Of a DNA stretch of 64,000 nt, positions 26,169 to 44,340 are shown one piece after another. Below the pieces are notes generated by a model that had not been told where the DNA came from, searched no databases, and saw only the letters and a list, made by a program, of their open reading frames with translations. The position numbers and the translations under genes were made by a program. How positions within the stretch are numbered: the first letter of the stretch is position 1; every line of letters begins with the position of its first letter. The DNA is from Marine Group III euryarchaeote CG-Epi1 (lineage in GTDB: Archaea; Thermoplasmatota; Poseidoniia; MGIII; CG-Epi1): contig MIZA01000019.1 in NCBI GenBank assembly GCA_001875345.1, positions 1,579 to 65,578 on the forward strand, written 5' to 3'.

Positions 26169-26969
26169 TTGACTAAATCCAATAATTTTAAGCTTTTATT
26201 AACTATTGATTTCGAAGAGCAACGTCGTCTTGAAAAGGCAGGATTTCCGAAGGAAGCAATTGAAGAATCCCTAAAAGGTACTTATCAAATTGTAGAATTA
26301 TTTGAGAAACTAGGAATAAAGGCAACTTGGTTTACTACAGCAGCAATAGGTTTAGCAGATACTAAGATATTCAAGAGATTAGTTGCTTCAGGACAGGAAA
26401 TAGCATTGCATGCATTACACGATCGTGATGATTACAATAAAATGCCGGAGGATAAAGCACGTAAGCGTCTTCAGAAAGCTAAAGATATTGTAGAATCAAT
26501 ATCTGGTCAAAAGACCGTTGGTTTTCGTGCACCTAGATTTCAGCATCCTTCATTAAAAGTTATAAAAGATCTAGGTTTCAAATATGATAGTTCACTTCAT
26601 CCAAGCCCAATGCCAGGAAGATATTCCGGTAAAGGAAAACTAGTTCCTCATGTTGATGAAGAGAGCGGTTTGACTGTTTTACCAGTATCTGTAGTTCCAG
26701 GTCTTAGATTACCATTATCTTGGATTTGGTTTAGAATGCTTCCTAAAGGATATATGAGATGGGGTGCCTCTCTTGTTGAGGCTAATTTTGATTATTTATG
26801 CCTATATTTTCATCCTTGGGATTTTGTTGATTTATCTAAATACAAAAGTTCTTTTCCTGCGGGTTTTACAGTAGGTGGAAAGAGTGCAATTAATGATATG
26901 GAAGACTTTCTAAAATGGGGATTAGAAAAAGGTTGGAAATCTATGACAATTCAAGATTATCTTGACTAA
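26169..26969 (+). CDS. Polysaccharide deacetylase/deformylase family (CE4 NodB-like, ArnD-like)
   Basis: LLLTIDFEE, ATWFTTA, GQEIALHALHD, GFRAPRFQ and YDSSLHPSP. The apparent start is a TTG immediately after the GT2 stop. Confidence 0.7.
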   Translation: MTKSNNFKLLLTIDFEEQRRLEKAGFPKEAIEESLKGTYQIVELFEKLGIKATWFTTAAIGLADTKIFKRLVASGQEIALHALHDRDDYNKMPEDKARKRLQKAKDIVESISGQKTVGFRAPRFQHPSLKVIKDLGFKYDSSLHPSPMPGRYSGKGKLVPHVDEESGLTVLPVSVVPGLRLPLSWIWFRMLPKGYMRWGASLVEANFDYLCLYFHPWDFVDLSKYKSSFPAGFTVGGKSAINDMEDFLKWGLEKGWKSMTIQDYLD

Positions 26970-31006: not shown

Positions 31007-33931
31007 ATGGCAGACTCTGAAAGCGGTGGAGGCAGGCGCTACGTTGTTCTTGCAGTAGTCATCATGTTGCTTGCAGCTTTGCCATTTTCACCGTTTGTTT
31101 CGTTCAGGTCTTCACAGCATATTGATACTGAATCAGCTTCTTTAGATTCTAATTTACCTACAAAAGATAGTGATAATGATGGTTTACCTGACTGGTGGGA
31201 AATGGAATTCAACTTGGATCCGTTTGATGCATCAGATGCATTATTAGATTCAGATCAAGATGGACACGATAGAAATCGTAATGGTATTCTTGAGGAAGAA
31301 GAGTTTTTTACTAATTTGATGGAATTTGAAATTAGAAATCTGCTTGGAAATAGTACAAATCCGACTAATTCAGATTCAGATGGTGATGGCATGCCAGATG
31401 GTTGGGAAGTTTACTATAATCTTAATCCTATTGGAGACTATGATGCAGACTCTGATGAAGATAATGATGGTTACGATGCAAATCGAAATAGTGATATTAG
31501 TCCCAATGAAAGGCATACTAATCTGGAAGAGTATTTGGCAGGAACTAGTCCTTGGCAGTTTGATTCAGACGGTGACAGGATGCCAGACGGGTGGGAATTA
31601 TTTTATGGATTAAATCCTACATCGTCAAGTGATGCTTGGTTTGACTCGGACTCTGATGGCTGGGATTCTGATTACGATGGTGAATTAATTTACGAAGAAA
31701 GATATTTCAATTACATGGAATATTTTAATGATACTAATCCGCTCGTTTCAGATACGGATGGAGATACAATGCCAGATGGCTGGGAAGTTATCTTTGAGTT
31801 AGACCCGTTAAGGCCTTCAGATAACTTTGAGGATAAGGAAAATGACGGCTTAGTAAATGTATACGAGTACAATAATTCACTGGTACTGACGGGATGGCTT
31901 GACCGTGACGGTATATTTACAACAAGGCCAGATATAGCAGATACTGATGGAGACGGTTTGACTGACATAGATGAGTTATTTATTCATTTGACAGATCCAA
32001 CTCATAATGATACTGATGATGATGGAATGCCCGATGGTTGGGAAGTAACTTACGATTTGAATCCAATATCAAGTTTGGATGCTAATGAAGACGCAGATGA
32101 TGATGGTTGGGATTTCGACAGAAATTTCATTATAGCAGGTTCGGAAAAATTTACTAACTTAGAAGAATATCTGAATTCTACTAACCCTAGAGAGAGCGAT
32201 ACAGACGGAGATGGTATGCCTGATGGTTGGGAAGCTTTTTACGATTTAAATCCGACCGATTCAAACGATGCTAATCAAGATTATGATTCTGATGGCTATG
32301 ATAGTAACAGAGATACTTTTATTTCAAATAATGAAAAATATACTAATTATGAAGAATTTTTAAACAATACAATCCCGAATAAGAATGACACTGATGAAGA
32401 TGGAATGTGGGATGGCTGGGAGATATACTACAGCTTGAATCCACTAGATGATTTTGATGCTACAGTTGACAATGATATGGATGGATTCGATTCTAATTAT
32501 AATGGGACTCTAGAGGAGGATGAAGAACATAATAATTTGTTAGAATTCCAAGCAGACACACATCCGTATCTAGAAGATACTGATGCAGATGGAATGTTAG
32601 ATGGATGGGAATGGAAATATGGATTAAATCCACTAAATCCAGCAGATGCAGGCGCAGATCCTGATCAAGATGGCGTAATTAATAGATTCGAATATAATAA
32701 CACTGCAGCAGGTTCTTACATCGAAGTAGATGGCATTACACATACAAATCCTAAGGACAATGATACAGACAATGACGGCCTTTTAGATGGTGAGGAATTA
32801 TTTAATTATTTAACCGATCCAACTCACAACGATACCGATGGAGATGGTATGCCAGACGGATGGGAAGTCAAATATGGCCTTAATCCTCTTGACCCTAATG
32901 ATGCTCTACTTGATTTAGATTCAGATGGTTTTGATTATAATTGGGATGGAAATCTCTCTGGCGAAGAATATTCGAATTTATTCGAATATTTGAATGGCAC
33001 GGATCCTACTAACGGAGATACAGACGGCGATGGAATGTCTGATGGTTGGGAGGTTCACTGGGGATTTCAACCGAATAACTCCAGCGATGCGCTCTCAGAT
33101 CCCGATAATGATGGATTGTTCAATTTATACGAATTCAATAACTCGAACATTGAAGGATTTGACAATGAAGTTATAAGTCCTGACAGCATTTTTGGATCTA
33201 ACCCCCTCTTGAAGGATACAGACGGAGATTTAATTGAAGACGGAGAAGAATGTTTTTCTGGTAATGACACTTATGTTACAGACCCCTCAAATCCTGATTC
33301 AGACGATGATGGTATGCCCGACGGCTGGGAGTTTTTGAATTCATTAAATCCTTTCGATTCCTCGGATGCAGATCAAGATTTAGATGACGATGGTTGGGAT
33401 TTTGATAGAAATGGCACTATTGAATTTTCTGAATTATACACAAATTATGAAGAATACTTGAACGGCACAGATCCTAGAAATAATGATACCGATGGCGATG
33501 GAATGCCAGATGGTTGGGAAGCATTTTATGGCTTGAATCCAAATTTAGCATTAGATTCTTCATTAGATTTTGATTCAGATGGATACGACGCGGATGGTGA
33601 CGGAGAAATGTCTCCTGATGAAAAATTTACGAATTACGAAGAGTTCCTAATGGATTCTAATCCAGCACTAGCCGATACAGATGGAGACAATTGCACAGAT
33701 GGTTGGGAAATATATTGGAATGATAATCGTCCAGCAAATGAAACACGAACAATAAATCTGTTGGATGGTTCAGATGGTTTTTTAGATTATGATGATGATG
33801 GCTGGGAAGATTGGGACGGTATTTCATATCCTTTCCCTAATTGGAGAGAAGAGGTAGCTAACACAAACCCTTGGAATCCAGATACAGACGGGGATTCCAT
33901 GACGGATGGATACGAGGCTGATAATGGATAA
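31007..33931 (+). CDS. Secreted/N-terminally anchored thrombospondin-type-3-like Ca-binding repeat protein (974 aa)
   Basis: N-terminal hydrophobic anchor RRYVVLAVVIMLLAALPFSPFV, then 13-14 repeats of ~70 aa. TATA-like TTTATAG (30978-30984) lies 23-29 nt upstream of ATG. Confidence 0.85.
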   Translation: MADSESGGGRRYVVLAVVIMLLAALPFSPFVSFRSSQHIDTESASLDSNLPTKDSDNDGLPDWWEMEFNLDPFDASDALLDSDQDGHDRNRNGILEEEEFFTNLMEFEIRNLLGNSTNPTNSDSDGDGMPDGWEVYYNLNPIGDYDADSDEDNDGYDANRNSDISPNERHTNLEEYLAGTSPWQFDSDGDRMPDGWELFYGLNPTSSSDAWFDSDSDGWDSDYDGELIYEERYFNYMEYFNDTNPLVSDTDGDTMPDGWEVIFELDPLRPSDNFEDKENDGLVNVYEYNNSLVLTGWLDRDGIFTTRPDIADTDGDGLTDIDELFIHLTDPTHNDTDDDGMPDGWEVTYDLNPISSLDANEDADDDGWDFDRNFIIAGSEKFTNLEEYLNSTNPRESDTDGDGMPDGWEAFYDLNPTDSNDANQDYDSDGYDSNRDTFISNNEKYTNYEEFLNNTIPNKNDTDEDGMWDGWEIYYSLNPLDDFDATVDNDMDGFDSNYNGTLEEDEEHNNLLEFQADTHPYLEDTDADGMLDGWEWKYGLNPLNPADAGADPDQDGVINRFEYNNTAAGSYIEVDGITHTNPKDNDTDNDGLLDGEELFNYLTDPTHNDTDGDGMPDGWEVKYGLNPLDPNDALLDLDSDGFDYNWDGNLSGEEYSNLFEYLNGTDPTNGDTDGDGMSDGWEVHWGFQPNNSSDALSDPDNDGLFNLYEFNNSNIEGFDNEVISPDSIFGSNPLLKDTDGDLIEDGEECFSGNDTYVTDPSNPDSDDDGMPDGWEFLNSLNPFDSSDADQDLDDDGWDFDRNGTIEFSELYTNYEEYLNGTDPRNNDTDGDGMPDGWEAFYGLNPNLALDSSLDFDSDGYDADGDGEMSPDEKFTNYEEFLMDSNPALADTDGDNCTDGWEIYWNDNRPANETRTINLLDGSDGFLDYDDDGWEDWDGISYPFPNWREEVANTNPWNPDTDGDSMTDGYEADNG
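31150..33925 (+). repeat. ~13-14 tandem protein repeats 'D.DGDGMPDGWE.[FY]Y.LNP....DA..D.D.DG[YW]D..[RN]......E.[FY]TN.EE[YF]LN.T.P'
   Basis: The PDGWE core recurs as LPDWWEMEF, MPDGWEVYY, MPDGWELFY, MPDGWEVIF, MPDGWEVTY, MPDGWEAFY, MWDGWEIYY, MLDGWEWKY, MPDGWEVKY, MSDGWEVHW, MPDGWEFLN, MPDGWEAFY, CTDGWEIYW and MTDGYEADN. Confidence 0.85.
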
Positions 33932-33948
33932 TTACAGCAAGATTGAAG

Positions 33949-33956
33949 TTTTTTTT
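33949..33956 (+). terminator. Oligo-T tract (T8), a possible archaeal terminator or attenuator after the TSP3 gene
   Basis: gaagTTTTTTTTggc lies 18 nt after the TAA at 33929-33931. Confidence 0.35.
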
Positions 33957-34006
33957 GGCATACCTTTATTTAACAACAGAAATTTATCTAGGTCGGTGTA
34001 GAGAAC

Positions 34007-37000
34007 ATGATGAAAAAATTATCTGTATTTTTTGCCATTTTTATCTTATTGTTTTCCCCTCTCGCTTCATTTCCAGTATCTGCAGACATTGACCCTGATG
34101 ATGATAATGATTCAGATGGCTACGATGCAAACGGAGATGGAATTATATCTTCAGACGAAGAATACACCAATTTAGAAGAATATTTCAATAATACCAATCC
34201 TAATGATCCAGATACGGACGACGGCGGAGCTTGGGACGGTTGGGAAGTCCACTACGGATTTGACCCAAAGAGCTCTTCAGATGAATCAGATGATAATGAT
34301 GGAGATTCCTTAGTTAACTCTATTGAATTTTACTGGGATTCAAATCCTTTTAGTGAAGATTCAGATCAAGATGGAATGCCTGATGGCTGGGAAGACACTT
34401 ATTCAAACAGATTAGAAGACGGAATTGGATGTGGGCTAGATCCAACTAATGGAAATGATAAGTTTGGAGATCCTGATAATGATGGTTCAGATAACTTAAG
34501 AGAGTACCAAGAAGATACTAATCCGTGCGATTCAGATAGTGACGACGATGGAGACCCAGATGGCGAAGATCCTCCGCCAGTAGATCCTGGAGATGATGAC
34601 GAAAGCAATCCAGACACAGGAGCTACGGATGGAAATGTAACAATTTATGAAATATTTGATCCGGTTTTAGGTACCGTAAAAAGATGGACTTCCTTGGACG
34701 GCCTTCTCTACGATGATCAAGCTTCAAATCCTACTGACATGTACACTATGTACAATTATGATTCAGATAAGTATGAAATTTTCCCTACAAATTATGAAGG
34801 ATACTCTAACATATTTGAGGGATGGATATGGATGGGAATTACAATTAGCACGACTGAATATACGAGAATTCCTTCAGTATCGCCTGACGCAGAGATAATA
34901 GATTATGATCCAAATTCAACCGGAGTTAATATCCGGTTTTTTAAGGATGGAGCCGATAATTACTATGTTCAAGGAAATGAAAATGTAGTTATAGATTTGA
35001 AATATAGAATGGGAACAAATGGTTCATATTTTAACAGACCTATTTCCGAAGATTTAACAACTGATGATATTCCCGAGCAAATTATACGGCCAATAAATGG
35101 TGCGGATCAGGTTAAAGAAAATGTTAGAGAATTTCTCCAGTATAGACACGATAATGGAACAATAGCTAATGAACCCTTGTATTGGTTGTGGCCAGACAAT
35201 GGAACTCCTGAAACCAATTTAGCACTAATAATTAACAATTTGACCTGGTATTTCTCTTCATTTATCGAGGGCGATGGAGATGTCCCTGATACAGAGGAAC
35301 CATGGGATGCTTATCAGACTATTTGTATTAACGGAATAGGGGCATGTAGGCACAGGTCTTTTGGCTTCTTTGTTACAGCTTTAGCATTGGGTGCGCCAAC
35401 AAGGTATGTTTCCAATGAGGCTCATGCATTTGTAGAAGTATACATTCCAGTTGACAACGAAACGGTTTCTGCAAGTCACTGGAAACGAATTAATTTAGGT
35501 GGAACAGGTAGCAGTACAACACTGGATAGGCCTGATGAGGATGATGAGGAAGGAGACACATTTGATTTCGATGAAATGGATCCTGACGATATAGATAATA
35601 TGACTGGTGTAGAAGTTACCATAGTTATTGAATCATATTCACCAGAAGAAGTAGCCAAAGGTGAGATAATTCGTATTACGGGTTATGCAGAGGACGAAAA
35701 TGGGACTAAATTGTCTAACTTCCCTATAGGTTTTGGAATGTGGGATAAAGATCATGTAAATCCAGCGTTTGAAATAGGTTCTACAGTCACAACGGCTTCA
35801 GGTACTTTCGACTACAACTCTACCGATTTTCTTCCAGCACTTCTTGGTTTGAATGAGATTTATGCAGCTTCTTACAAACAAGGTTTTTTGGGTGTAGATG
35901 GGCCCAAGGAAATTGAAATTTCTTCAGATGCAGTTCTAACTGTTTCAGCACCATCTTCTGTAGGCAAAGGACAGGATTTAATTGTTTCAGGAACTTTACT
36001 GGATATAGGCGGTGTTGCAGCATCTAATGAAGAAATTGAATTTGAGATATGGGAGCCTGGATTTGGCGGAGGAAAACCAGGAACTGTTCGTTGTAACCCC
36101 TCACAATGGTGGCAACCATATCGTTGTGATATAGGTACAACAACTACAGACTCGTTTGGAAATTTTGTATTCAATTGGACTGTACCTGAAAATGGTCAAC
36201 CAGATTCAGATGACAACTATCGCTTAGAATCTCATTTTGACGGTTCAACCTATCTTAATGAAGAAACTGTTACAACCAATTTGATTATTATGGATGAGAC
36301 TGTAAATTTAACGGCCATCCTTTCTTCAGATAGTGAGTATATTTCTAATAACATTTATGTTAATGGTAGTGTCTTAGAAAAAGCTGTAGATAATGGAGAT
36401 ATAAGCATTGAATTATCAGGATCTACTCTTGCATCTTTTGCTGTTGAAGATTCAAATTGGTCAAACGAGGTTTCAGTTCCATCCAGCCTATCTGCTGGCA
36501 ATTATACGATAATTGTTTCATTTATTAGTTCGAGCGATACATTACCTGATGAAAAGGTAGAATTGCCTTTTACAATCTTAGGTACTAGTAATATTATTTT
36601 AGACGCAGATTCTTTAAAAATTACTAGAGGTGAAACAGTTACATTGGAAGGAGAGCTTGTTGATCACCTTGGTGAACCAATTTCAAACGAGGAGATAGAA
36701 GTTATTTGGAATGATGAAATTTTAGGAACTGCAACAACAGAATCCGATGGTGATTTCTCTTATGATTACTTAGTTACACTTGATACTCCACTTGCAAACG
36801 TAACATGGTCTGCAGATTTCGCAGGTAATTTTCTCCATGATAGTTCTGAAGCGTCACAAGTAACTGAAATTTATCAACAAACAGTAATCAACTTCCAAAT
36901 AGATAAAAAACATTTTTACTCTGGAGACCAATTCATCGTCTCAGGTAATCTTTCAATGGATAATGGGACTCTTTTCGAGGGAAATCTAGTGTTTTATTTT

Positions 37001-39934
37001 GATGACGTTTTTGTTGAATCATTCACCACAGATGGTACATTTAGCTTTCAATATATCCCAGAGTCTTCATACTTAGACGTAGGTTCACATTCATTCAAAC
37101 TCAGTTATTCTGAAATAGAATATAACTTAGGAGCTACGTCACAAGAAGAAGTATTCTTCCACAAGAAAGTCATAATTGAGGTAAATGAGGAACAAGTTTT
37201 ACGCGATCAGGAAATAGAGATAACTGGTTTCGCGAGAGATGAAAACTCTCTTGCTATTTCTGGTATCGATTTATCCTTCAAATGGGGGGATAATGAAATT
37301 GATGGAGTTTCAACTACAATATTTGGAGGTTCGTTCTCTAAAGATTATTTGGTACCTAATGCTCAATTATTAGGGAAAATCACAGTTGAAGTTAATTTTG
37401 ATAATTCCACCCAACCTTTCTACGATAATGCATCAAAGACCGTAGAGTTCACGGTAGTTTCTGAAACATTAATATTTATCCCCGATACTGAATTAGTTAG
37501 AGGATCAGATGTCTGGTTCAACGGTTCCATTTTAGATGATAGAGGCCAGCCTGTCGAGGACATTGAAGTAAATATTTTTTGGAATGGAGATTATTTGAGA
37601 TACGTTACAGGGGACTCGAATGGTAGCTTCAGCTTCATTTGCGAGTCGGATTGGGAATGTTCAGACACAGATCATCCAGTTGGTGTAATTCCAGTAGAAC
37701 TTGATTTTGGTGGATTTGGTTACTATCTTCCATCTAACTACATCTCAAATTATACCATATGGGGCAGCACTTCAATTGAGATAATCGATTTCAGTGATTC
37801 AGTTATCGCTGGCAATAATGTTTCTTTCAATGGGTTTATTGAGAATGATTTGGAAGTTCCTTTAGACCGAGAAATTAAGATTTTGTGGAACGGAATTACA
37901 AGGACTACGGTTCAATCTGTTAATGGCGAGTTTGAAGGAAATTTCAAGTTGCCTTATGACACTATGGTGGGCAATCATTCTTTAACTGCTAAAGTTGAAG
38001 ATCAAAACTATCTTCGTGAATCGTCAGATGTAGTTGAAGTCTTTGTTCAACGAGAAACTGAGATAATCATACAGTGGTTAGGTGGTTACAGAAATCAATC
38101 AACTACAGTTTCAGGATATCTTAGGGATGCGGCCGGAATGGGGCTTCAGAATTTAGAGTTGGAAGTTTATTTTGATGGAATTTACGTAGGAAACGTAACT
38201 ACTCAAAATTTAGGACTCTATAGTTTCGAATATTTAATCCCCTTTGACACTACATTGGGAACGCATAATATCGAAGTAGTTTTTACAGGTTCATATTTTT
38301 ATGTTGAATCTACTAATAATGTAAATTCCGAAGTTTTATCAACTACAATCTTTGAATTTAATGAGATCGAAGTCTTCCGTAATCAAGAGTTTTTCTTGAG
38401 TTCTTATTTGTTTGACGATTTATCTAACCCTATGGCAAATCAACACGTTAATTTGACATTTAATGGTAAAAGATACCACCTAGTAACTGACGATGCAGGT
38501 ATGGTTGAGCAAAATATTACCTTAGCACCTAATCACAAGCTAGGTAATTATGCAGCTAAGTGGGATTACTTGGGATTCGAATATTATCTTCCAGCTTCAT
38601 CTGAGCAAGAAGTTCGGGTGGTGGCTTCAACTAATATTGTATTGTCCTCAGATTCAGAAGTAATAGTTGGAGAAACGTTTAGTTTTAATGGAACTTTGAA
38701 GGACGACATGGGTAATCCACTTAAAGCAACATTAAGTTTTTCATTTGATGGTAATATAATTGAGACAATTGAATCAAATTCAAATGGTTATTTTGAAAAT
38801 ATTTATTTAGTTCCAGATGAAAGTATTGCAGGTCCAAACACAATTATGGTAACTTATATTCCGGATGAATTTTATCTATCTTCAACTTCTAGTTGGGTTT
38901 TACAAGTCTCTCACAATATTAGAATCGAATTGCCAGATTATTCTTCTATGACAAATACAACCGAATCAATTTCAGGTTTTGTGTTCGATAAAGCAAATCG
39001 TCCAGTTTCTAGTCTTGAAGTTAGATTAACCTTGGACTCTGGATTTCCTTTAATCACAAATACAAATTCTGATGGTGAATTTAGTGTAGACTTAGAAATA
39101 CCCTATGGCACATCTTTAGGATATCATAATTTAACTGCAGAATCGCTTGGTAACAATTACTATATTGGGAACAGTACAACATCAAAATTATTTGTTCAGG
39201 GTCAAACGTTTTTGACTTTAGACGTTCCAGCTTCTTTAGAATTTAAGCAGGAGTTCATAGGAACGATTACTCTTCAAATGTATGACGGGACTTATGTCTC
39301 CGGTGCTCCACTGCTAATATCTTTTGAACCTCTTGGAATGACTACAATGGTTGTTACAGATTTCAATGGCACTGCAACGTTTTCATCTTATTATTCAGGT
39401 AATACAACCATTCCAATGCAAGTAACTGTAAATTATACAGGGAATGAAGAATACGTAGCTAGTAGTATTGAATCTACAATTATATACAGAGCACCTTCTC
39501 AACAATCCAACTACGCAATATGGGCAATCATTGGAGCTACATTAGTCGCATCTTCAGGGGTATTACTAGGCTGGAAATGGTATCGAGAACGTCATCTCAG
39601 AGAAATCCAGAGAATTTTGGAATCCACAGCTTTAGCTTTAGAAGCAAATATGGATTACAGAGATTCAATTGTTTTCTCCTACAAAGAGATGTGTAAGGTC
39701 TTACAGGGCCATGGATATCTAAGAAAACACTTTGAAACAGTTAGGGAGTTTCAAGAAGCTCTTCGGACTGCCTTATCTCTAGATCAAGATTCAGTTGCAA
39801 GATTGACAATTCTCTATGAGGAAGCGGACTATACTAAGAAGGAATTGGATGATGACCATAGAATTAATGCAGTATCTGCACTTAGAACTGTAATTGAAAG
39901 TTTAGATTTAAACGAATCATCATTAGAAGACTAG
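34007..39934 (+). CDS. Giant (1,975 aa) extracellular transglutaminase-core protein: signal peptide, TSP3-like repeats, transglutaminase-like cysteine-protease fold, 13 Ig/prealbumin-like repeats, C-terminal TM, cytoplasmic DUF4129-like tail
   Basis: Signal peptide MMKKLSVFFAIFILLFSPLASFPVSA. AWDGWEVHYGFDP / MPDGWEDTY repeats. Core motifs GIGACRHRSFGFFVTALALGAPTRYV...EAHAFVEVYI...WKRINLGG. TM helix YAIWAIIGATLVASSGVLLGWKWY (39511-39583). Tail TVREFQEAL......SVARLTILYEEADYTKKEL. Confidence 0.85.
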   Translation: MMKKLSVFFAIFILLFSPLASFPVSADIDPDDDNDSDGYDANGDGIISSDEEYTNLEEYFNNTNPNDPDTDDGGAWDGWEVHYGFDPKSSSDESDDNDGDSLVNSIEFYWDSNPFSEDSDQDGMPDGWEDTYSNRLEDGIGCGLDPTNGNDKFGDPDNDGSDNLREYQEDTNPCDSDSDDDGDPDGEDPPPVDPGDDDESNPDTGATDGNVTIYEIFDPVLGTVKRWTSLDGLLYDDQASNPTDMYTMYNYDSDKYEIFPTNYEGYSNIFEGWIWMGITISTTEYTRIPSVSPDAEIIDYDPNSTGVNIRFFKDGADNYYVQGNENVVIDLKYRMGTNGSYFNRPISEDLTTDDIPEQIIRPINGADQVKENVREFLQYRHDNGTIANEPLYWLWPDNGTPETNLALIINNLTWYFSSFIEGDGDVPDTEEPWDAYQTICINGIGACRHRSFGFFVTALALGAPTRYVSNEAHAFVEVYIPVDNETVSASHWKRINLGGTGSSTTLDRPDEDDEEGDTFDFDEMDPDDIDNMTGVEVTIVIESYSPEEVAKGEIIRITGYAEDENGTKLSNFPIGFGMWDKDHVNPAFEIGSTVTTASGTFDYNSTDFLPALLGLNEIYAASYKQGFLGVDGPKEIEISSDAVLTVSAPSSVGKGQDLIVSGTLLDIGGVAASNEEIEFEIWEPGFGGGKPGTVRCNPSQWWQPYRCDIGTTTTDSFGNFVFNWTVPENGQPDSDDNYRLESHFDGSTYLNEETVTTNLIIMDETVNLTAILSSDSEYISNNIYVNGSVLEKAVDNGDISIELSGSTLASFAVEDSNWSNEVSVPSSLSAGNYTIIVSFISSSDTLPDEKVELPFTILGTSNIILDADSLKITRGETVTLEGELVDHLGEPISNEEIEVIWNDEILGTATTESDGDFSYDYLVTLDTPLANVTWSADFAGNFLHDSSEASQVTEIYQQTVINFQIDKKHFYSGDQFIVSGNLSMDNGTLFEGNLVFYFDDVFVESFTTDGTFSFQYIPESSYLDVGSHSFKLSYSEIEYNLGATSQEEVFFHKKVIIEVNEEQVLRDQEIEITGFARDENSLAISGIDLSFKWGDNEIDGVSTTIFGGSFSKDYLVPNAQLLGKITVEVNFDNSTQPFYDNASKTVEFTVVSETLIFIPDTELVRGSDVWFNGSILDDRGQPVEDIEVNIFWNGDYLRYVTGDSNGSFSFICESDWECSDTDHPVGVIPVELDFGGFGYYLPSNYISNYTIWGSTSIEIIDFSDSVIAGNNVSFNGFIENDLEVPLDREIKILWNGITRTTVQSVNGEFEGNFKLPYDTMVGNHSLTAKVEDQNYLRESSDVVEVFVQRETEIIIQWLGGYRNQSTTVSGYLRDAAGMGLQNLELEVYFDGIYVGNVTTQNLGLYSFEYLIPFDTTLGTHNIEVVFTGSYFYVESTNNVNSEVLSTTIFEFNEIEVFRNQEFFLSSYLFDDLSNPMANQHVNLTFNGKRYHLVTDDAGMVEQNITLAPNHKLGNYAAKWDYLGFEYYLPASSEQEVRVVASTNIVLSSDSEVIVGETFSFNGTLKDDMGNPLKATLSFSFDGNIIETIESNSNGYFENIYLVPDESIAGPNTIMVTYIPDEFYLSSTSSWVLQVSHNIRIELPDYSSMTNTTESISGFVFDKANRPVSSLEVRLTLDSGFPLITNTNSDGEFSVDLEIPYGTSLGYHNLTAESLGNNYYIGNSTTSKLFVQGQTFLTLDVPASLEFKQEFIGTITLQMYDGTYVSGAPLLISFEPLGMTTMVVTDFNGTATFSSYYSGNTTIPMQVTVNYTGNEEYVASSIESTIIYRAPSQQSNYAIWAIIGATLVASSGVLLGWKWYRERHLREIQRILESTALALEANMDYRDSIVFSYKEMCKVLQGHGYLRKHFETVREFQEALRTALSLDQDSVARLTILYEEADYTKKELDDDHRINAVSALRTVIESLDLNESSLED
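35265..35520 (+). other. Transglutaminase-like core (Cys 35345-35347, His 35423-35425, Asn at the expected Asp position 35492-35494)
   Basis: The G-x-C-R-H...H-A-F-V-E-V-Y...W-x-x-I-N pattern is compared from memory with the canonical G.C..FA....HAW.EVY....W...DPT. Confidence 0.65.
35625..39400 (+). repeat. 13 tandem ~95-105-aa Ig/prealbumin-like repeats
   Basis: Recurrent strand motif [IV].[ILF].G.[LIV].D..G.P[ILV]....[ILV].[ILV], e.g. ITGYAEDENGTKLSNFPIGF, LEGELVDHLGEPISNEEIEVIW, FNGSILDDRGQPVEDIEVNIFW, VSGYLRDAAGMGLQNLELEVYF and FNGTLKDDMGNPLKATLSFSF. Each is followed by a 'T....G.F...Y..P' strand. Confidence 0.7.
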
Positions 39935-39935
39935 C

Positions 39936-41240
39936 ATGGAAATATCTAGCCGCTCTGGTATAATGATTCTTTTTGCAACAGTGGCAGTTTGTACATTAGT
40001 TCTGTTTCCTCTATTACAATACGTAGCGGAACGAGATCCTCAATTATCAGCATATGACGACGATTGGAATGACATTTCAAATTTCAGAAAAGGCTTGGAA
40101 GACAATCCAAATACAAGCTACAATGTTAGTGCAGTATTGTCAAATCCTGGTGTACTCGATGAGATTTCAGATCCTACCTCCACCTTATTTGTCATAGTGG
40201 GCACAGAATCCCCATATTCTTCTTTGGAATTGGAGATATTAGCAAGATATATGGAAAGTGGTGGAAGCATACTTGTGTTTGGAGATTTTGATTATTCCAA
40301 TACCATCGCGGAATTATTTGCAATAGAATTTGTAAAGCATAAACTCTGGGATCAAAACTATAGGGATAATTTATCATTGATTCCTACTACTGCAATTGTC
40401 GAAGGTGAGTCGTACAACATACTTTTGAATGAACCTGTTGCGATTAGAGACTTAGGTTCTCAATACATAAATCTTTGGAGCCAAGGTTTTGAATGGAATA
40501 AGAAAGTCTTTATTTCCACATCTAAAAATTCTTGGATTGATTCAGACGATGACGGATTAATAACACCTGAAGATGAAGTGTCCGGTCCTCAAGGTTTTAC
40601 AGTTGGAATGCGTTGTGAAATGAAATCTGCTGAGGGGGTACAATTAGGCACAGCGGTTTTTGTTTCGGATTCAAGTTTGCCAATAAACATGATGTGGAAT
40701 GAAGATAGAAATTCAGATTTTTTATTGAGTCTAATAGAATCAATGATAGGTTCTGAAGGTGATATTCTATTTGATGAATCTAGACATACACAAGAATCGT
40801 TTGGAGCTAGTTTATTTCAGAGTGCATTAGGATTTTATTTTCTTCTGGCAGGAGATACCTTAATCATCCAAGTAATTAGATTAAACGTTCTTGTTTTAGT
40901 AATTATTTTGACAATGGGATTGTCAATGAGGCAGGCTGAACCCAAACGTTGGTATCATATTTTTGACATTAGAAAGCCTAGGCCTCTTAGATCATATGGG
41001 CATAGTCTTGACAAGGGAATTCTTGCACTTCAAGATGTGTTTTTGGAGAGGCTAAGGTTGAAGCATCAAATTTATGAGTTTGACGATAAATCCAGAAAAG
41101 ATAGAATGGCCATGCTAGCAGACGTACTGAATCGTTATAATGTGGCCTTAGATGAAGATATTAAGATGCTTTTGGGTAATCCTCAAGAAATAAGGCCAGA
41201 TATTCTCAGAAGTATAGCTAAAAAATTGAGTGCGTGGTAA
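39936..41240 (+). CDS. DUF4350-like membrane protein (N-terminal TM, extracytoplasmic flavodoxin-like domain, second TM region, cytoplasmic tail)
   Basis: TM helix MILFATVAVCTLVLFPLL, then SAYDDDWNDISNFRKGLED...TLFVIVGTESPYSSLELEILARYMESGGSILVFGDF. This matches my recollection of DUF4350 proteins in MoxR/DUF58 clusters (SxY...G...L...L; L..Y...GG.LL). The start is 1 nt after the upstream stop. Confidence 0.5.
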   Translation: MEISSRSGIMILFATVAVCTLVLFPLLQYVAERDPQLSAYDDDWNDISNFRKGLEDNPNTSYNVSAVLSNPGVLDEISDPTSTLFVIVGTESPYSSLELEILARYMESGGSILVFGDFDYSNTIAELFAIEFVKHKLWDQNYRDNLSLIPTTAIVEGESYNILLNEPVAIRDLGSQYINLWSQGFEWNKKVFISTSKNSWIDSDDDGLITPEDEVSGPQGFTVGMRCEMKSAEGVQLGTAVFVSDSSLPINMMWNEDRNSDFLLSLIESMIGSEGDILFDESRHTQESFGASLFQSALGFYFLLAGDTLIIQVIRLNVLVLVIILTMGLSMRQAEPKRWYHIFDIRKPRPLRSYGHSLDKGILALQDVFLERLRLKHQIYEFDDKSRKDRMAMLADVLNRYNVALDEDIKMLLGNPQEIRPDILRSIAKKLSAW

Positions 41241-42243
41241 ATTGAGTAGCGAAAAAGATGTTGTAGAAAATTCTAGTCAATCTCTTGACTTAGTTAAGAA
41301 AACTAACAAGTCAGCAAAGCAAATTGCAGATGAAGTTTCTAATGTGGTATTAGGAAAAGAACAAACAATTGAAATGGTTATGGCAGGAATTCTAGCTAAT
41401 GGTAATATTTTGTTTGAAGATTTTCCAGGATTGGCAAAGACATTGATGTCTAATACTTTGGCCGATGCTTTAGGATGCGAGTTTAAGAGAATACAATTTA
41501 CACCTGATTTATTGCCAGCAGATATCACAGGTTCCTATTTTTATGACCCTGAGAAAAACAAATTCAAATTTCGTAAAGGCCCTATATTCTGTAATATTCT
41601 TCTAGCCGACGAAATTAACAGAGCACCACCTAAAACTCAAGCTGCTTTATTAGAAGCGATGCAAGAGAAACAAATTACTATTGAGGGAACAACACACAAG
41701 CTAGCATCTCCCTTCATTGTTTTGGCAACTCAGAACCCTATTGAGTACGAAGGAACATATCCTCTCCCAGAGGCTCAGATGGATCGTTTTTTAATTAAAT
41801 TAAGTGTAGGTTATCCTGATGAGGATGTTGAGACTGGTATCTTAGAAGGGCGTTCACAAAGAAAGAAAGATTCGTTTACAGTTAAATCTCGAGCTACTCC
41901 AGATAAGGTAGATGAAATGCACGCCTCAATTGAGGAAGTTTTTGTTAAGAAAGAAGTAATGAGATATATTGTAGACTTAGTTCAATCAACTCGAAGAGAT
42001 CCGCGTGTTGCCGTAGGTTCAAGTCCTCGTGGAAGCCTTGGTCTGTTTAAGTTGTCCAGAGCTTTAGCAGTTCTTTCTGGGAGAGATTACGTAGTTCCTG
42101 ATGATGTTAAAAGAGCTGCAATTCCTGTACTTGGCCACAGAATAATTCTTAAGCCAGAAGCACGTATTCGTGGTGTAAATGTAGAAGAGGTCATAGGTGA
42201 ATTGCTTATGACTGTTCAAGTTCCAGCAGTAACTGTGGAATAG
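41230..42243 (+). CDS. moxR: MoxR-family AAA+ ATPase
   Basis: VVLGKEQTIEMVMAGILANGNILFEDFPGLAKT (Walker A), LLADEINRAPPKTQAALLEAMQEKQITIEG and VLATQNPIEYEGTYPLPEAQMDRF. The GTG start overlaps the upstream gene by 11 nt. Confidence 0.92.
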   Translation: MRGKLSSEKDVVENSSQSLDLVKKTNKSAKQIADEVSNVVLGKEQTIEMVMAGILANGNILFEDFPGLAKTLMSNTLADALGCEFKRIQFTPDLLPADITGSYFYDPEKNKFKFRKGPIFCNILLADEINRAPPKTQAALLEAMQEKQITIEGTTHKLASPFIVLATQNPIEYEGTYPLPEAQMDRFLIKLSVGYPDEDVETGILEGRSQRKKDSFTVKSRATPDKVDEMHASIEEVFVKKEVMRYIVDLVQSTRRDPRVAVGSSPRGSLGLFKLSRALAVLSGRDYVVPDDVKRAAIPVLGHRIILKPEARIRGVNVEEVIGELLMTVQVPAVTVE

Positions 42244-42247
42244 TTCA

Positions 42248-43495
42248 ATGTGGACACGTAAAGCAATTGTTTACGTTGGCTCAGGCGTTATTCTTGTATT
42301 ATTTGCTCCTTTCATTAATAATCTTCAGCTTTTTTTACTTGGAACTACAATATTAGCTTTTGTGGCAGTTCATAGTCTTGTTAATACCAGACCCATTGAT
42401 GTAAAGATTTCAAGAAGTTTTAATGATGATCAAGTTTTTGAAAATAGTAGTGTTAGTATTGATCTTGTTGTTCAAAATAAAGGACGTGCAGTAGGCTTTT
42501 TGGAAATTTATGATAATCTTCCTTCCGAAGTTGAAGTTCAATCTGGATTAAATCATAGTGTAATTCGCTTGAGGAAAAATGAGACAGTTGTTAACCAATA
42601 TTTACTTGATTGCCGACTGAGAGGCCAATTTAGGCTGGGTAATCCAAGACTAAGAATATACAACCCTTCGTTCCTATTTTACTATGAATCTGAAATTGAA
42701 TCAAAGTCTAGTCTAGTTGTTTTACCCCAAATTGAAGAAATAGAAGGCGTTGATCTGTCAACAGATTTTCCAAAGATGTACCAAGGGGCCATGCCAATTC
42801 GAAGGATAGGGACTAGCGGGGAATTTTATGGAATTCGTGAGTATTTCCCAGGGGATGATTTCAAGAATATAAATTGGAGGGTGTTTGGACGAACTAGAAA
42901 ACTAATGGTCAATCAGTTTGAAAGAGAAGATATTTCAGATATAATGATTGTCTTGGATGCGCGTGAGATTACAGGTACAGGTACAATTCTGAGGAATCCT
43001 TTAAATTATTCATGTAAAGCTGCAGCGTCATTAGTAAATTTCTTTTTGAGAACTAGAAATCGTGTAGGTTTGATTACCTACGGTGAATCTGTAAATGTTA
43101 TTTCTCCTGATACTGGCGAAAGACATCTTTTTAAGATTTTAACAGCTTTAGCAGAAATTAAATCTGCAGGTTCTTTAGGATTACATACTGTATTAGGCGA
43201 TCTTCGAAATTTTACGCCTCGCTCTCCTGTAATGGTCATATCTACCTTAGAAAATGATAAGACTAGTGCGACTGCACTTCGGGAGATTACTGCTAGAGGT
43301 TTCAAATTGACAGTTATTGCTCCAGATACCTTAGATTATGATAGAGATTCTAGGATAATATCGCCTACTGTTTATTTTACAGCTTCAGCTTCATTGGAAA
43401 ACAAGATTACAGAAGCTCGTTCATTAGGTGCTCGGGCTATGCGTTGGAATCCTGATTCTGTTCTATCGACTTCGTTAGCAGAGGTAATACGATAA
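42248..43495 (+). CDS. DUF58 (vWA-like) protein, the usual MoxR partner
   Basis: Two N-terminal TM helices. Signature SGEFYGIREYFPGDDFKNINWRVFGRTRKLMVNQFERE. Confidence 0.9.
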   Translation: MWTRKAIVYVGSGVILVLFAPFINNLQLFLLGTTILAFVAVHSLVNTRPIDVKISRSFNDDQVFENSSVSIDLVVQNKGRAVGFLEIYDNLPSEVEVQSGLNHSVIRLRKNETVVNQYLLDCRLRGQFRLGNPRLRIYNPSFLFYYESEIESKSSLVVLPQIEEIEGVDLSTDFPKMYQGAMPIRRIGTSGEFYGIREYFPGDDFKNINWRVFGRTRKLMVNQFEREDISDIMIVLDAREITGTGTILRNPLNYSCKAAASLVNFFLRTRNRVGLITYGESVNVISPDTGERHLFKILTALAEIKSAGSLGLHTVLGDLRNFTPRSPVMVISTLENDKTSATALREITARGFKLTVIAPDTLDYDRDSRIISPTVYFTASASLENKITEARSLGARAMRWNPDSVLSTSLAEVIR

Positions 43496-44340
43496 TGCAA
43501 ACAAGCAATACTCTAGCAATAATGCAGTCCGTAGCGACTTTATCATTAATGCTTAGCTTGAGTTTTGCGTATTTAATTAATCCACTGGAAGATTCACTTT
43601 TCCTTAGTGCACTTGATGGTTTTACAAGTAGTTTGTACAATAGTAATGTAATCAATGAACTAAATACTTCTGTCATAGCAGGAATACTAGTAGGATTGTT
43701 CTTAGGAACTACAAACGTTTTGCTAAGCTCTAGCAAAAAAATATATGATTATGTTTTAATTGCAATAGTCTCATTTTTTGTATTAATTTTCTTTGGTTAT
43801 GTATTTAGTGTAGAATGGATCCCATATGAGCCTCTTCAGCAAGTACTATTTTGGGTCTTTATTGGTTTGCCAGTTTCTACAGGAATGGTTGGTATTTGGC
43901 AAAATAAAGTAGGTAATCTAGCAGTATCAGCTTTTCTAATCTTATCCATGCCTCTTGGTTTGACAGGTAATACAAACGAACAAATTTATCCAATTTTAGG
44001 GTTTGTTTTTAGTTTTATTCTTTATTTGGAATTAAGTTATGGCCATGCAAGATATAGCAGATTAGCAAGAGTTATGGCATTTTCAAAAGAATATGAGGAT
44101 GTTCTAGTTTGGTTCTTAACAACCTTAATGGTAACCGTCGCTTTTACTATGATTTTGACTTCACTAGCTTTCTTATTTCATGATTTATTAGGTAGTATTT
44201 TACCTTACAGCTTTTCTAATTCCATAGAATACAACACAATTTACGGTCAGGCATTATCGGTTCTTGTTTTCTTCATGTTATGGTCTGTGATTCAAATTCT
44301 TTTTTCAAGAGGATATCTCGCTCGGCAGGTCGAAGATTAA
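43495..44340 (+). CDS. Polytopic membrane protein (about 7-8 TM), last gene of the MoxR cluster, function unknown
   Basis: Hydrophobic throughout. Its ATG overlaps the DUF58 stop (TAATG 43493-43497). I recognise no family motif. Confidence 0.6.
   Translation: MQTSNTLAIMQSVATLSLMLSLSFAYLINPLEDSLFLSALDGFTSSLYNSNVINELNTSVIAGILVGLFLGTTNVLLSSSKKIYDYVLIAIVSFFVLIFFGYVFSVEWIPYEPLQQVLFWVFIGLPVSTGMVGIWQNKVGNLAVSAFLILSMPLGLTGNTNEQIYPILGFVFSFILYLELSYGHARYSRLARVMAFSKEYEDVLVWFLTTLMVTVAFTMILTSLAFLFHDLLGSILPYSFSNSIEYNTIYGQALSVLVFFMLWSVIQILFSRGYLARQVED

Follow-up and report, generated by a model that had tools for sequence, protein, structure and literature searches.

A long-stalked, TgpA-like transglutaminase-family surface protein encoded beside DUF4350, MoxR and DUF58 genes in a Marine Group III archaeon

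The transglutaminase-like (TGL) protein TgpA (PA2873) of Pseudomonas aeruginosa is encoded with two companions, PA2875 and PA2874, which we take to be of the MoxR and DUF58 types, respectively. The three genes are co-transcribed and the periplasmic domain of TgpA has transglutaminase activity (PMC3507681); a MoxR-vWA-TGL operon was also described by Zhang and Aravind (2012; PMC3495828), and Makarova, Galperin and Koonin (2015; PMC5898192) termed the archaeal arCOG01314 (DUF4350)-MoxR-vWA-Ig neighbourhood a 'predicted secretion or membrane remodelling complex', so the cluster type is already predicted computationally in the latter two studies. The mycobacterial Rv3689-Rv3695 cluster encodes DUF4350 (Rv3691), MoxR2 (Rv3692), DUF58 (Rv3693), SpoIIM-like (Rv3694c) and RDD (Rv3695) proteins, and the orthologous genes of M. 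chelonae are co-regulated (PMC8191103). In the Esr system of oral Actinomycetota, to which a bifidobacterial PFNA cluster is related, a MoxR-vWA cluster includes the transglutaminase EsrD, which keeps a filament protein of 14 Ig repeats at the cell surface (bioRxiv 10.64898/2026.09.08.750141). The first four of these reports bear out the statement, made in a first-pass annotation of the DNA studied here, that a wider MoxR/DUF58/TGL/DUF4129/DUF4350 neighbourhood exists and is functionally unsolved; its further remark that it was aware of no characterised archaeal example holds for experiments only: an archaeal DUF4350-MoxR-vWA-Ig set was described computationally in 2015 (PMC5898192).

The window analysed here is a 64,000-nucleotide stretch of DNA from an uncultured marine archaeon of Marine Group III (MGIII; Poseidoniia). 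ORF calling recovered exactly the six co-directional plus-strand ORFs (974, 1975, 434, 337, 415 and 281 aa) and the four tight junctions that had been annotated, and the features of the locus are:

31007..33931, + strand: acidic 974-aa protein, secreted or N-terminally anchored, with TSP3 (Ca-binding) super-repeats (ORF; Pfam TSP3_bac, 2e-30)
33949..33973, + strand: T8 run (33949-33956), then the promoter-like element GGCATACCTTTATTTAA (33957-33973) (sequence, conservation)
34007..39934, + strand: 1975-aa surface protein with signal peptide, TSP3 repeats, TgpA-like TGL module, 13 Ig-like repeats, TM helix and DUF4129 tail
34619..35521, + strand: TGL module (aa ~205-505) of this protein, with an N-terminal beta domain and a TGL core, Cys447/His473/Asn496 (homologues, AF2, Foldseek)
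35639..39493, + strand: stalk of 13 tandem Ig-like (CarboxypepD_reg/Big_3_5-type) repeats, aa 545-1829 (iterated HMM, Pfam)
39515..39931, + strand: TM helix (aa 1837-1855) and 120-aa cytoplasmic tail with DUF4129 (aa 1892-1960) (hydrophobicity, Pfam)
39936..41240, + strand: bitopic DUF4350 (arCOG01314-type) protein, 434 aa (Pfam DUF4350, 3.4e-8)
41230..42243, + strand: cytoplasmic MoxR-type AAA+ ATPase, 337 aa (AAA_3, 2.3e-64; AAA_lid_2, 2e-23)
42248..43495, + strand: 415-aa DUF58 protein with an N-terminal two-helix hairpin and a DUF58/vWA-like domain (DUF58, 3.4e-19; VWA_2, 5e-4)
43495..44340, + strand: 281-aa polytopic (~7-helix) membrane protein of a small orphan family (hydrophobicity, AF2, hhalign)

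The 1975-aa and DUF4350 genes are 1 nt apart (39934/39936), the DUF4350 and MoxR genes overlap by 11 nt (41230-41240), the MoxR and DUF58 genes are 4 nt apart (42243/42248) and the DUF58 and 281-aa genes overlap by 1 nt (at 43495). The fifth junction, between the 974-aa and 1975-aa genes (33931/34007), was not listed in the first-pass annotation; it is 75 nt long and holds the T8 run and the promoter-like element, a putative archaeal BRE/TATA element that lies 34-50 nt 5' of the ATG of the 1975-aa gene, occurs once within the whole window, and is present as GGCATACCTTTAT(T/G)TAA or near-identical variants (the shortest being AATACCTTTATTTAC) in 17 of 17 readable orthologous MGIII loci, the 18th locus being N-masked. 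Because of this T8 run and conserved element, the transcription unit probably comprises the last five genes, and the TSP3 gene beside them probably has a promoter of its own; the six-gene system first proposed is thus retained for its five tightly packed members, with the TSP3 gene more likely standing apart.

Pfam did not detect the transglutaminase core when the whole 1975-aa protein was the query, and the excised TGL segment fell below the cut-off (E 0.0042; 17.8 bits against 23). The annotated identity nevertheless stands because of the PF01841-bearing homologues of the module, a PDB profile match to PNGase in which the Cys, His and Asp positions are aligned, and an AF2 model (pLDDT 83.4, pTM 0.85). 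The module has 279 homologues, and PF01841 was present in all but three of the 120 listed (two close archaeal fragments and one protein with PF01835), the listed sequences being 25-35% identical, mostly over 70-100% of the module. Its closest sequence relatives are secreted TGL proteins of ~550-590 aa from Myxococcota (e.g. Kofleriaceae), which match the 300-aa module in this same range, with 94-100% coverage in about three-quarters of the listed matches, and include the N-terminal beta domain and the following Ig-like domain; however, these proteins are short, have no detected TM/DUF4129 tail and are not adjacent to MoxR, DUF58 or DUF4350, which suggests that the enzyme module can work without MoxR and DUF58.

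Foldseek searches with the TGL model gave TgpA structures (6g49/6g4h) as top matches (6g49, E 1.2e-6, probability 1.0), although the likeness is modest (TM 0.42-0.46, rmsd ~8 Å, only 13-14% identity). The model thus shows a Cys-His-Asn/Asp TGL domain whose fold is most similar to the TgpA periplasmic domain. Cys447 and His473 are invariant across 31 aligned sequences, whereas the third catalytic position holds Asn in 18 of the orthologous sequences (Asn496 in the window protein, a difference from TgpA), Asp in another 11, and Glu in a paralogous giant protein; such variation is unusual for transglutaminases, and could reflect a protease or binding role.

As annotated, the 1975-aa protein has exactly 13 Ig-like domains (iterated repeat HMM, E 1e-10 to 1e-31), with Pfam matches to CarboxypepD_reg, Big_3_5, MG2 and MG4. 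Hydrophobicity analysis found an N-terminal signal sequence and a C-terminal TM helix followed by a Lys/Arg-rich tail (5 of the first 15 residues), and DUF4129 was scored within that tail (E 6.8e-7; 29.7 bits against 24.8), in keeping with the cytoplasmic position first given to it. The TGL domain therefore sits at the outer end of a 13-Ig stalk with a single TM anchor and a DUF4129 cytoplasmic tail, and domain and topology analysis agree with the earlier picture, in which the enzyme is displayed by a large secreted Ig/TSP3 protein and not by a compact membrane protein.

In both this protein and TgpA, a TM helix follows a TGL domain that lies outside the cytoplasm and has the same fold, and the gene for TgpA shares its transcription unit with two genes upstream of it (PMC3507681). 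However, TgpA is compact and crosses the inner membrane several times, with a multi-TM DUF3488 region at its N-terminus, where the 1975-aa protein instead has a cleavable-type signal and TSP3 repeats; the 13 Ig-like domains are inserted between enzyme and TM helix, the gene order is reversed with the enzyme first, and DUF4350 and the orphan seven-helix protein are added. The arCOG01314 neighbourhood shares a bitopic DUF4350 protein, a MoxR/GvpN-type ATPase, an Ig-like-then-vWA protein and Ig surface proteins in one archaeal operon, but its description (PMC5898192) includes no TGL/DUF4129 component and no 281-aa family, and Marine Groups II and III lie outside its coverage. Rv3689-Rv3695 has the same core order, DUF4350-MoxR-DUF58, with polytopic membrane proteins, but no giant Ig/TSP3/TGL protein, and the 281-aa protein matches neither its SpoIIM nor its RDD family. 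The Esr system shares ~14 Ig (or FN3) repeats, MoxR, vWA/DUF58 and a transglutaminase; there, however, the transglutaminase is a different polypeptide from the filament, which carries a beta-propeller at its end, and a Ser/Thr kinase, phosphatase and FHA protein are integral, none of which is in the window locus. What is new is a long-stalked surface TGL enzyme encoded with a cytoplasmic MoxR/DUF58 pair, a fresh arrangement of a widespread, functionally unsolved cluster.

The first-pass annotation had made its reading depend on the DUF4350 and DUF4129 assignments, both of which scored above Pfam thresholds, and its TSP3, MoxR, DUF58 and membrane-protein calls were likewise recovered. The DUF4350 protein, with 285 homologues in marine archaea and weak Pfam matches to IFT52_GIFT and ABC_transp_aux, has an N-terminal TM/signal segment, an extracellular GldG/GIFT-like alpha/beta domain, a TM region (aa 296-334) and a 100-aa basic cytoplasmic tail. 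Hydropathy analysis found no hydrophobic segment in the MoxR protein. In the DUF58 protein, TM helices at aa 6-24 and 27-45 form a tight hairpin from which, by simple hydropathy, the globular domain would be cytoplasmic, whereas Makarova et al. took the vWA protein of their neighbourhood as secreted (PMC5898192); its vWA-like domain lacks the DxSxS MIDAS motif and has LDAREI at that position in all five variants aligned. The 281-aa protein (~7 hydrophobic helices; all-helical AF2 model, pLDDT 79.8) had no match in Pfam, NCBIfam or PADLOC, its model matched no fold in the PDB, transporter folds included, and only 25 representatives of its family were found among 1.84 billion proteins. By sequence profile, however, it aligns with its positional counterparts in the paralogous MGIII and the MGII loci (hhalign probability 83-90%, E 1.6e-6 to 9e-6), and this orphan family is kept in position after DUF58.

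Gene order in relatives, the test proposed at the outset, was kept in 33 orthologous loci, in about 19 diverged paralogous loci within those genomes, and in a relative, L038, at 31% identity. The M24 peptidase, transketolase-like and GATase genes flanking the orthologous loci are conserved too, so orthologue synteny alone proves little; the paralogous set (a giant TGL/TSP3/Ig/DUF4129 protein, DUF4350, MoxR, DUF58 and a polytopic membrane protein), however, has different flanks, and its presence in the same genomes argues for functional linkage beyond synteny. Identity between the window and paralogous copies is graded (MoxR 61%, DUF58 36%, DUF4129 tail 30%, membrane protein about 25%, DUF4350 24%), which indicates that surface and membrane parts diverged together and, at the level of sequence, shows a set duplicated and co-diverged. 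The TGL domain of the paralogue passes the Pfam threshold (4.9e-20), with TgpA as best PDB sequence match, and the TSP3 array, a separate neighbouring gene in the window, is fused inside the paralogous giant protein. The MGII loci keep DUF4350-DUF58-membrane protein but have neither MoxR nor the DUF4129-tailed TGL protein.

Taken as a whole, the locus is best explained, with somewhat better than even confidence, as the MGIII version of a MoxR-DUF58-TgpA-type transglutaminase/DUF4129 (+DUF4350) membrane module. The four membrane proteins (1975-aa, DUF4350, DUF58 and 281-aa) would form one complex, in which DUF58 may act as a membrane-tethered adaptor, with the DUF4129 tail and the DUF4350 C-terminus presented to a MoxR hexamer; ATP-driven remodelling by MoxR would then assemble the complex or turn it on and off, and the surface enzyme would be under inside-out control. 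Outside, the TGL head may act on proteins of an acidic, glycosylated, Ca-binding surface coat, the likeliest reaction, by analogy with TgpA and EsrD, being covalent cross-linking or anchoring, with proteolysis as the main alternative. We infer assembly, cross-linking or remodelling of a Ca-dependent matrix, and the present results do not tell cross-linking, deamidation and proteolysis apart.

Following the 2015 model, DUF4350, MoxR, DUF58 and the membrane protein might instead be a machine that exports or installs giant Ig-repeat proteins, with the 1975-aa and perhaps the TSP3 protein as cargo and TGL as passenger. This reading, which we consider unlikely, draws on the published arCOG01314 prediction, made from the likeness of DUF4350 to GldG of gliding/T9SS (PMC5898192), on the giant surface proteins directly upstream in both MGIII copies, and on the MGII loci, whose core does not need the TGL protein. 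Against it, the 1975-aa and 974-aa proteins carry ordinary N-terminal signal sequences that fit Sec export, no pore-forming or translocase-like component is recognisable (nor does the 281-aa protein match a transporter fold), and the conserved cytoplasmic DUF4129 tail suggests a lasting membrane partner rather than released cargo. MoxR proteins, moreover, are known as remodelling chaperones and not as translocation motors.

A second, similarly unlikely and marginally less credible reading is a regulated surface protease of LapG/LapD type, in which TGL would be a Ca-dependent cysteine protease trimming or releasing adhesins and MoxR/DUF58 would gate it from inside; candidate targets would be the TSP3 protein or a 6364-aa beta-helix protein. 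Archaeal members of the TGL superfamily have widely been predicted to be proteases (PMC3495828, PMC4858521), Cys-His-Asn is the papain arrangement and Asn is commoner than Asp here, LapG also turned up in the structural search (E 0.04-0.08, probability 0.75-0.89), and the Gln- and Lys-poor neighbours make poor cross-linking substrates. The best structural and sequence matches, however, are TgpA and 3isr rather than LapG, transglutaminase activity has been measured for TgpA (PMC3507681), and Pfam searches found no LapD-like or cyclic-di-GMP component at the locus.

Less probable still is a system of the Esr or 'ternary conflict system' type, in which a surface sensor feeds a MoxR-vWA threshold switch; its long Ig/TSP3 filament would detect an external cue such as a virus, epibiont or particle surface, and the signal would reach DUF58/MoxR by way of the TM helix and the DUF4129 tail. 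EsrA (14 Ig repeats), with MoxR, vWA and transglutaminase, is a close architectural parallel (bioRxiv 10.64898/2026.09.08.750141), the system exists in two copies whose extracellular parts diverge fast, and the MoxR protein also scores on Pfam bpMoxR (33.9 bits, cut-off 27). That score is nonetheless far below AAA_3 (215 bits), the locus and its immediate surroundings contain no beta-propeller sensor, Ser/Thr kinase, phosphatase, FHA protein, effector or transcription factor, PADLOC gave no match, and the stable syntenic chromosomal context does not look mobile. That the TSP3 gene, or indeed every gene of the set, is a mere syntenic neighbour with no joint function is very improbable, for although the unrelated flanks are conserved too and the 75-nt junction sets the TSP3 gene apart, the five downstream genes overlap or lie at most 4 nt apart and recur together in the paralogue, which carries its TSP3 array in cis.

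Within the favoured TgpA-type module, the TSP3 neighbour, proposed earlier as candidate partner or substrate, would be the stalk protein's non-covalent or structural partner and not a bulk substrate: its low Gln (0.8%) and Lys (1.0%) contents, by which it is predicted to be a poor bulk transglutaminase substrate, together with the TSP3 array inside the paralogous giant protein, favour the partner role. The protein has a net charge of -227 and a single N-terminal hydrophobic segment (aa 13-31), with no C-terminal anchor in its hydrophobicity profile. N-glycosylation sequons are enriched in both ectodomains, the TSP3 protein having 22 compared with 12 in shuffled sequence.

All six co-directional genes that the first-pass annotation had described as a surface system were returned by our ORF listing at identical coordinates:

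31007-33931, + strand: TSP3 protein, 974 aa
34007-39934, + strand: giant protein, 1975 aa
39936-41240, + strand: DUF4350 protein, 434 aa
41230-42243, + strand: MoxR, 337 aa
42248-43495, + strand: DUF58 protein, 415 aa
43495-44340, + strand: membrane protein, 281 aa

The four tight junctions claimed downstream of the giant-protein gene were confirmed (a 1-nt gap, an 11-nt overlap, a 4-nt gap and a 1-nt overlap), and Pfam searches bore out the TSP3, DUF4129, DUF4350, MoxR and DUF58 assignments. The 974-aa protein matched TSP3_bac (PF18884; 2e-30, 104.5 bits against a cut-off of 25, six scored stretches) and contains 14 strict DxDxDGxxDGWE-type motifs; the 1975-aa protein matched the Ig-like families CarboxypepD_reg, Big_3_5, MG2 and MG4 and, at aa 1892-1960, DUF4129 (29.7 bits, cut-off 24.8); the 434-aa protein matched DUF4350 (34.4 bits, cut-off 30.4); the 337-aa protein matched AAA_3 (215.6 bits, cut-off 27), with bpMoxR as a secondary match beneath it (33.9 bits), and AAA_lid_2 (82.3 bits, cut-off 22.7); and the 415-aa protein, whose gene starts 4 nt past moxR, matched DUF58 (69.4 bits, cut-off 23.4). 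The canonical vWA MIDAS motif DxSxS is absent from the DUF58 protein, where LDAREI occupies the position (D-A/S-R in all five DUF58 variants aligned), and its VWA_2 score of 21 bits lay under the cut-off of 27. Searched against PDB sequences, the DUF4350 protein returned only an insignificant IFT52 match (E 0.49).

Membrane topology was called from simple hydropathy and counts of flanking charges. The 1975-aa protein begins with a single N-terminal signal-type segment followed by TSP3 repeats, carries the transglutaminase-like (TGL) module at aa ~205-505 and then 13 Ig-like repeats at aa 545-1829 (iterated repeat HMM, giving the same number as the first-pass annotation), and has a TM helix at aa 1837-1855. 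Since five Lys/Arg lie within the 15 residues past this helix, the DUF4129 tail is placed in the cytoplasm, in agreement with the side of the membrane originally proposed for it. The DUF4350 protein is bitopic, with an N-terminal signal/TM segment, an extracellular alpha/beta domain, a C-terminal TM helix and a basic C-terminal tail of 100 aa, and the N-terminus of the DUF58 protein is a tight two-helix hairpin.

The whole 1975-aa protein gave no Pfam match to Transglut_core, and homologues and a structure model were therefore brought in for the TGL core; the excised region scored below the cut-off (PF01841; E 0.0042, 17.8 bits, cut-off 23). A single-sequence search with the module found 11 matches, and a profile of the module aligned with its first homologues (A3) retrieved 279 proteins, mostly 'transglutaminase domain-containing' proteins of ~550-590 aa from Kofleriaceae and other Myxococcota. 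Identities were 25-35%, mostly with 70-100% of the 304-aa module aligned; among the matches listed, about three quarters covered 94-100% of the module and nearly all carried PF01841. The best match of the A3 profile among PDB sequences was peptide N-glycanase (PNGase), with the catalytic Cys, His and Asp positions aligned. The AlphaFold model of the module (pLDDT 83.4, pTM 0.85, 42-sequence alignment) has the papain-like TGL fold, its Cys lying on a helix and its His/Asp on strands, and its best Foldseek matches were to the periplasmic domain of TgpA, the Pseudomonas aeruginosa transglutaminase (6g49/6g4h; E 1.2e-6, probability 1.0), a likeness that is modest by TM-score (0.42-0.46, ~319 aligned columns). 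Several independent results thus establish the transglutaminase-like assignment: the core first proposed stands on fold and homologues, although the window protein itself does not reach the Pfam threshold for Transglut_core.

Cys447 and His473 are invariant in the 31 aligned sequences covering the active site. At the third triad position 18 of these, the window protein included, have Asn and 11 have Asp; the giant protein of L044, a paralogous locus of Marine Group III (MGIII), has Glu there (WLTFEPT; locus 708-9974). In the window protein the residue is encoded as follows:

35492-35494, + strand: Asn496 codon of the 1975-aa protein, third triad position

Asn is catalytically acceptable as the third residue in papain-type enzymes. 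Judged from its sequence the module looks active, and it may cross-link, deamidate or cleave its substrates. MoxR or DUF58 neighbours were not found for three bacterial homologues (P0008, P0011 and P0166), so the TGL-MoxR link is not extendable to them. The closest non-archaeal relatives of the module are the Myxococcota proteins of ~550-590 aa (Kofleriaceae and others), an affinity for which transfer between domains is possible; Myxococcota-type contigs (L001-L004, L088) often have Ser/Thr kinase, PP2C or FHA genes no more than a few kb away.

The 75-nt spacer 5' of the 1975-aa gene holds a T8 run followed by GGCATACCTTTATTTAA (window 33949-33973), an element that is single-copy within the window; GGCATACCTTTAT(T/G)TAA or near-identical variants occur in 17 of 17 readable MGIII orthologous loci, an 18th being masked by N. 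In most of these 17 loci the start codon is preceded by an ACGCGT-containing stretch and GGTG; ACGCGT is missing in the window. The T8 run and the element may represent an oligo-T terminator plus a BRE/TATA-type promoter, on which reading the transcription unit would consist of the five downstream genes, with the TSP3 gene separately promoted. Of the six-gene unit originally suggested, the tight five-gene part is retained, and the TSP3 gene is probably not a member, given this putative terminator/promoter spacer.

A functional tie between the TSP3 protein and the giant protein is likely, since the same super-repeat is found at the N-terminus of the 1975-aa protein (~40% identical to the TSP3 protein) and the paralogous giant protein carries ~40 TSP3-type motifs in cis, between its TGL head and Ig stalk, a fused-versus-split ('Rosetta stone') arrangement. 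The TSP3 protein had been put forward as a partner or substrate of the enzyme; the shared and fused repeats favour a partner, whereas a composition poor in Gln (0.8%) and Lys (1.0%), with a net charge of -227, disfavours a bulk substrate of Gln-Lys cross-linking. Both ectodomains show an enrichment of about 1.7-fold in N-glycosylation sequons, consistent with proteins exposed at the surface. NCBIfam matches of the TSP3 protein to Myxococcus CglD and MtsD lay far below cut-offs and were due to the repeats only.

The 281-aa protein has ~7 helices by hydropathy, and its all-helical AlphaFold model (pLDDT 79.8) matched no solved PDB fold (best E 1.8). Searches of Pfam (with the E limit relaxed to 5), NCBIfam and PADLOC gave no match, nothing supported an identity as SpoIIM, RDD, CPBP or archaeosortase, and an exhaustive search of 1.84 billion representatives found only 25 relatives. 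Profile-profile comparison matched it to the same-position membrane proteins of the paralogous MGIII loci and of Marine Group II (MGII) loci (probability 83-90%, E 1.6e-6 to 9e-6), and the proteins so matched have in common the motifs GIW, E-L/S-S-Y-G/A-x-x-R/K-Y and S-I-E-x4-Y-G. On these comparisons the protein is a conserved fifth component of the Poseidoniia DUF4350-DUF58 core.

We propose that the giant protein, the DUF4350 protein and the 281-aa protein would form a membrane complex, and that the DUF58 protein, hairpin-tethered and vWA-like without the MIDAS serines, would present the two cytoplasmic tails, that of DUF4129 and that of the DUF4350 protein, to MoxR, which would spend ATP on assembling the complex or on switching it. 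The TGL head, perhaps tens of nanometres off the membrane on its 13 Ig domains, would covalently modify surface-coat proteins. Cross-linking or anchoring would be the favoured reaction, on the precedents of TgpA, whose periplasmic domain has transglutaminase activity and which is co-transcribed with two upstream genes (PMC3507681), and of EsrD, a transglutaminase of a MoxR-vWA cluster that retains a 14-Ig filament protein at the cell surface (bioRxiv 10.64898/2026.09.08.750141).

Other readings were weighed against this surface-modifying complex. The locus might encode a secretion or assembly apparatus (PMC5898192); a DUF4350-MoxR-vWA-Ig neighbourhood is already known in archaea from the same study, and in the six proteins Pfam found no match to the arCOG02884/arCOG03442-type Ig-like S-layer membrane proteins (pfam07760), the Ig-like domains at the locus being of the CarboxypepD_reg/Big_3_5 type and carried on the TGL protein. 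The head might instead be a LapG-like regulated protease. The next Foldseek match after TgpA was 3isr, a Cytophaga TGL 'putative cysteine protease', and LapG itself, along with PNGase and animal TG2/TG3, was a weaker match. An Esr-like sensor would share the MoxR-vWA and transglutaminase setting of EsrD, but no kinase, FHA protein, beta-propeller or defence-model match was found at the locus, and Pfam searches of the locus and scanned neighbours found no beta-propeller, Ser/Thr kinase, phosphatase or FHA components. A defence system is not supported, PADLOC having given no match, and the Zhang & Aravind model of degradation in the cytoplasm (PMC3495828) cannot hold in its literal form, since enzyme and ATPase lie on opposite sides of the membrane.

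Mere synteny of neighbouring genes is a further rival, which bears on the comparison of the window proteins with the 80 loci recovered by the DUF4350 profile. Among genomes, MGIII archaea (Poseidoniia; 'MGIII-CG-Epi1' and related MAGs) gave the best matches. The order TSP3 / giant / DUF4350 / MoxR / DUF58 / 281-aa is complete in 33 of 33 orthologous MGIII loci (DUF4350 63-99% identical), which also have common unrelated flanks (M24 peptidase, transketolase-like gene, GATase); orthologous synteny alone therefore says little and was not used as evidence of linkage. The same MGIII genomes hold a diverged second copy on other contigs with different flanks (~19 loci), in the order ~3,000-aa protein, DUF4350, MoxR, DUF58 and ~365-aa polytopic membrane protein. 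The giant protein of L044 (3088 aa) matched Transglut_core (4.9e-20), Ig-like domains, DUF4129 and TSP3_bac (1.8e-78, 15 scored repeats) in Pfam, and TgpA was again the best match among PDB sequences. A five-gene copy with the same domains in the same genomes means that the whole module was duplicated. Identity of the second copy to the window locus is 61% for MoxR, 36% for DUF58 and 24% for DUF4350, and the DUF4129 tails of the two giant proteins are 30% identical; after duplication the cytoplasmic ATPase stayed conserved and the tail, DUF4350 and membrane protein diverged together, a pattern that would be expected of parts touching in paralogue-specific sets.

In a relative at 31% identity (L038), DUF4350 and MoxR come after a giant TGL/Ig/tail protein. 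In ~31 MGII species (L055-L087) the arrangement is Cdc48 / DUF4350 (~550 aa) / DUF58 / ~404-aa membrane protein, for example:

L081, 7225-13994: Cdc48 / DUF4350 / DUF58 / membrane protein

Neither MoxR nor a TGL/DUF4129 protein lies within 10 kb of the MGII DUF4350-DUF58 loci, and MoxR and the DUF4129-tailed enzyme are jointly present or jointly absent in this locus sample, with one possible exception on a 5.7-kb contig (L039: tail-bearing protein, DUF4350 and DUF58, with no MoxR between). In MGII, Cdc48 might stand in for MoxR or might just be a syntenic neighbour. The MoxR-DUF4129 association rests on one clade. In the polished long-read contig L005 (4044-9999) the giant-protein gene is called as three (677, 1115 and 123 aa), most likely through residual frameshift errors and not real fission.

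A bolder reading, which we hold to be improbable, is that DUF4129 might serve as a cytoplasmic 'handle' by which the membrane-tethered adaptor DUF58 and the MoxR hexamer mechanically control the extracellular enzyme across one TM helix, an ATP-driven, integrin-like inside-out switch that would turn the cross-linking or cleaving enzyme on its stalk on and off and so control MGIII attachment to particles or neighbouring cells. It fits the joint loss in MGII of MoxR and the DUF4129-tailed protein and, if true, would offer the whole MoxR-DUF58-TgpA/DUF4129 class its first mechanistic rationale.

To our knowledge, MoxR-DUF58-transglutaminase clusters and DUF4129/DUF4350 clusters are among the commonest unexplained operons of bacteria and archaea, and TgpA is essential in Pseudomonas aeruginosa. 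The window locus resembles the TgpA type in that an extracytoplasmic TGL domain precedes a TM helix and, on the cytoplasmic side, a DUF4129 domain, which TgpA itself presumably carries too, and in that the TGL gene shares an operon with MoxR and DUF58, presumably the identities of PA2875/PA2874, the genes 5' of tgpA. It differs in that the 1975-aa protein has no N-terminal polytopic DUF3488 domain (no Pfam match). Computation, and in part experiment, has already made the class known: besides TgpA and the archaeal DUF4350 neighbourhood, the MoxR-vWA-TGL operon (PMC3495828), the mycobacterial Rv3689-3695 cluster (PMC8191103), the PFNA cluster of bifidobacteria (PMC8430577) and the Esr pathway have been described. 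New here are the joining of a TgpA-like head, Ig stalk, TM helix and DUF4129 in one protein; the replacement of the polytopic N-terminus by a signal peptide; the combination of this fused protein with DUF4350; the orphan membrane-protein family; two co-diverged module copies per genome; a third catalytic residue that varies between Asn and Asp (and Glu); and the affinity of the TGL module to Myxococcota proteins. A specialist would not be very surprised by the locus, and the host is uncultured.

The MGIII version has its parts cleanly separated, with the enzyme head far outside on a stalk, one TM helix and a short DUF4129 tail inside. With direct contact between the ATPase in the cytoplasm and the enzyme at the surface impossible, any coupling must run via the tails and membrane partners, which narrows the hypotheses for the whole class, makes the MoxR-DUF58-TgpA question easier to frame and points to the tails, DUF58 and MoxR as the parts to examine. 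The locus also defines a small new membrane-protein family and may be what determines adhesion at the surface, or the assembly of the coat, in abundant uncultured ocean archaea.

Elsewhere in the window, a 6,364-aa ORF (59-19153, + strand) with about 20 Beta_helix/NosD stretches, two Laminin_G_3 and PKD-like domains looks like another giant surface protein, and its stop codon is abutted by a tRNA gene:

19155-19230, - strand: tRNA-Gly(GCC)

A few kb upstream of the locus, 23722-26969 holds a row of genes for a PMT_2/GT87-like glycosyltransferase, a GT2 glycosyltransferase and a polysaccharide deacetylase; they may form a surface-glycosylation set with a bearing on the surface proteins rich in sequons. 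Downstream, at 44383-46701, lies the gene for a 772-aa single-chain transketolase-like protein (N, pyrimidine-binding and C domains), followed co-directionally and with small gaps by those for a 196-aa class-I glutamine amidotransferase and two ATG22/MFS transporters, a row that adjoins the locus in all MGIII orthologues.
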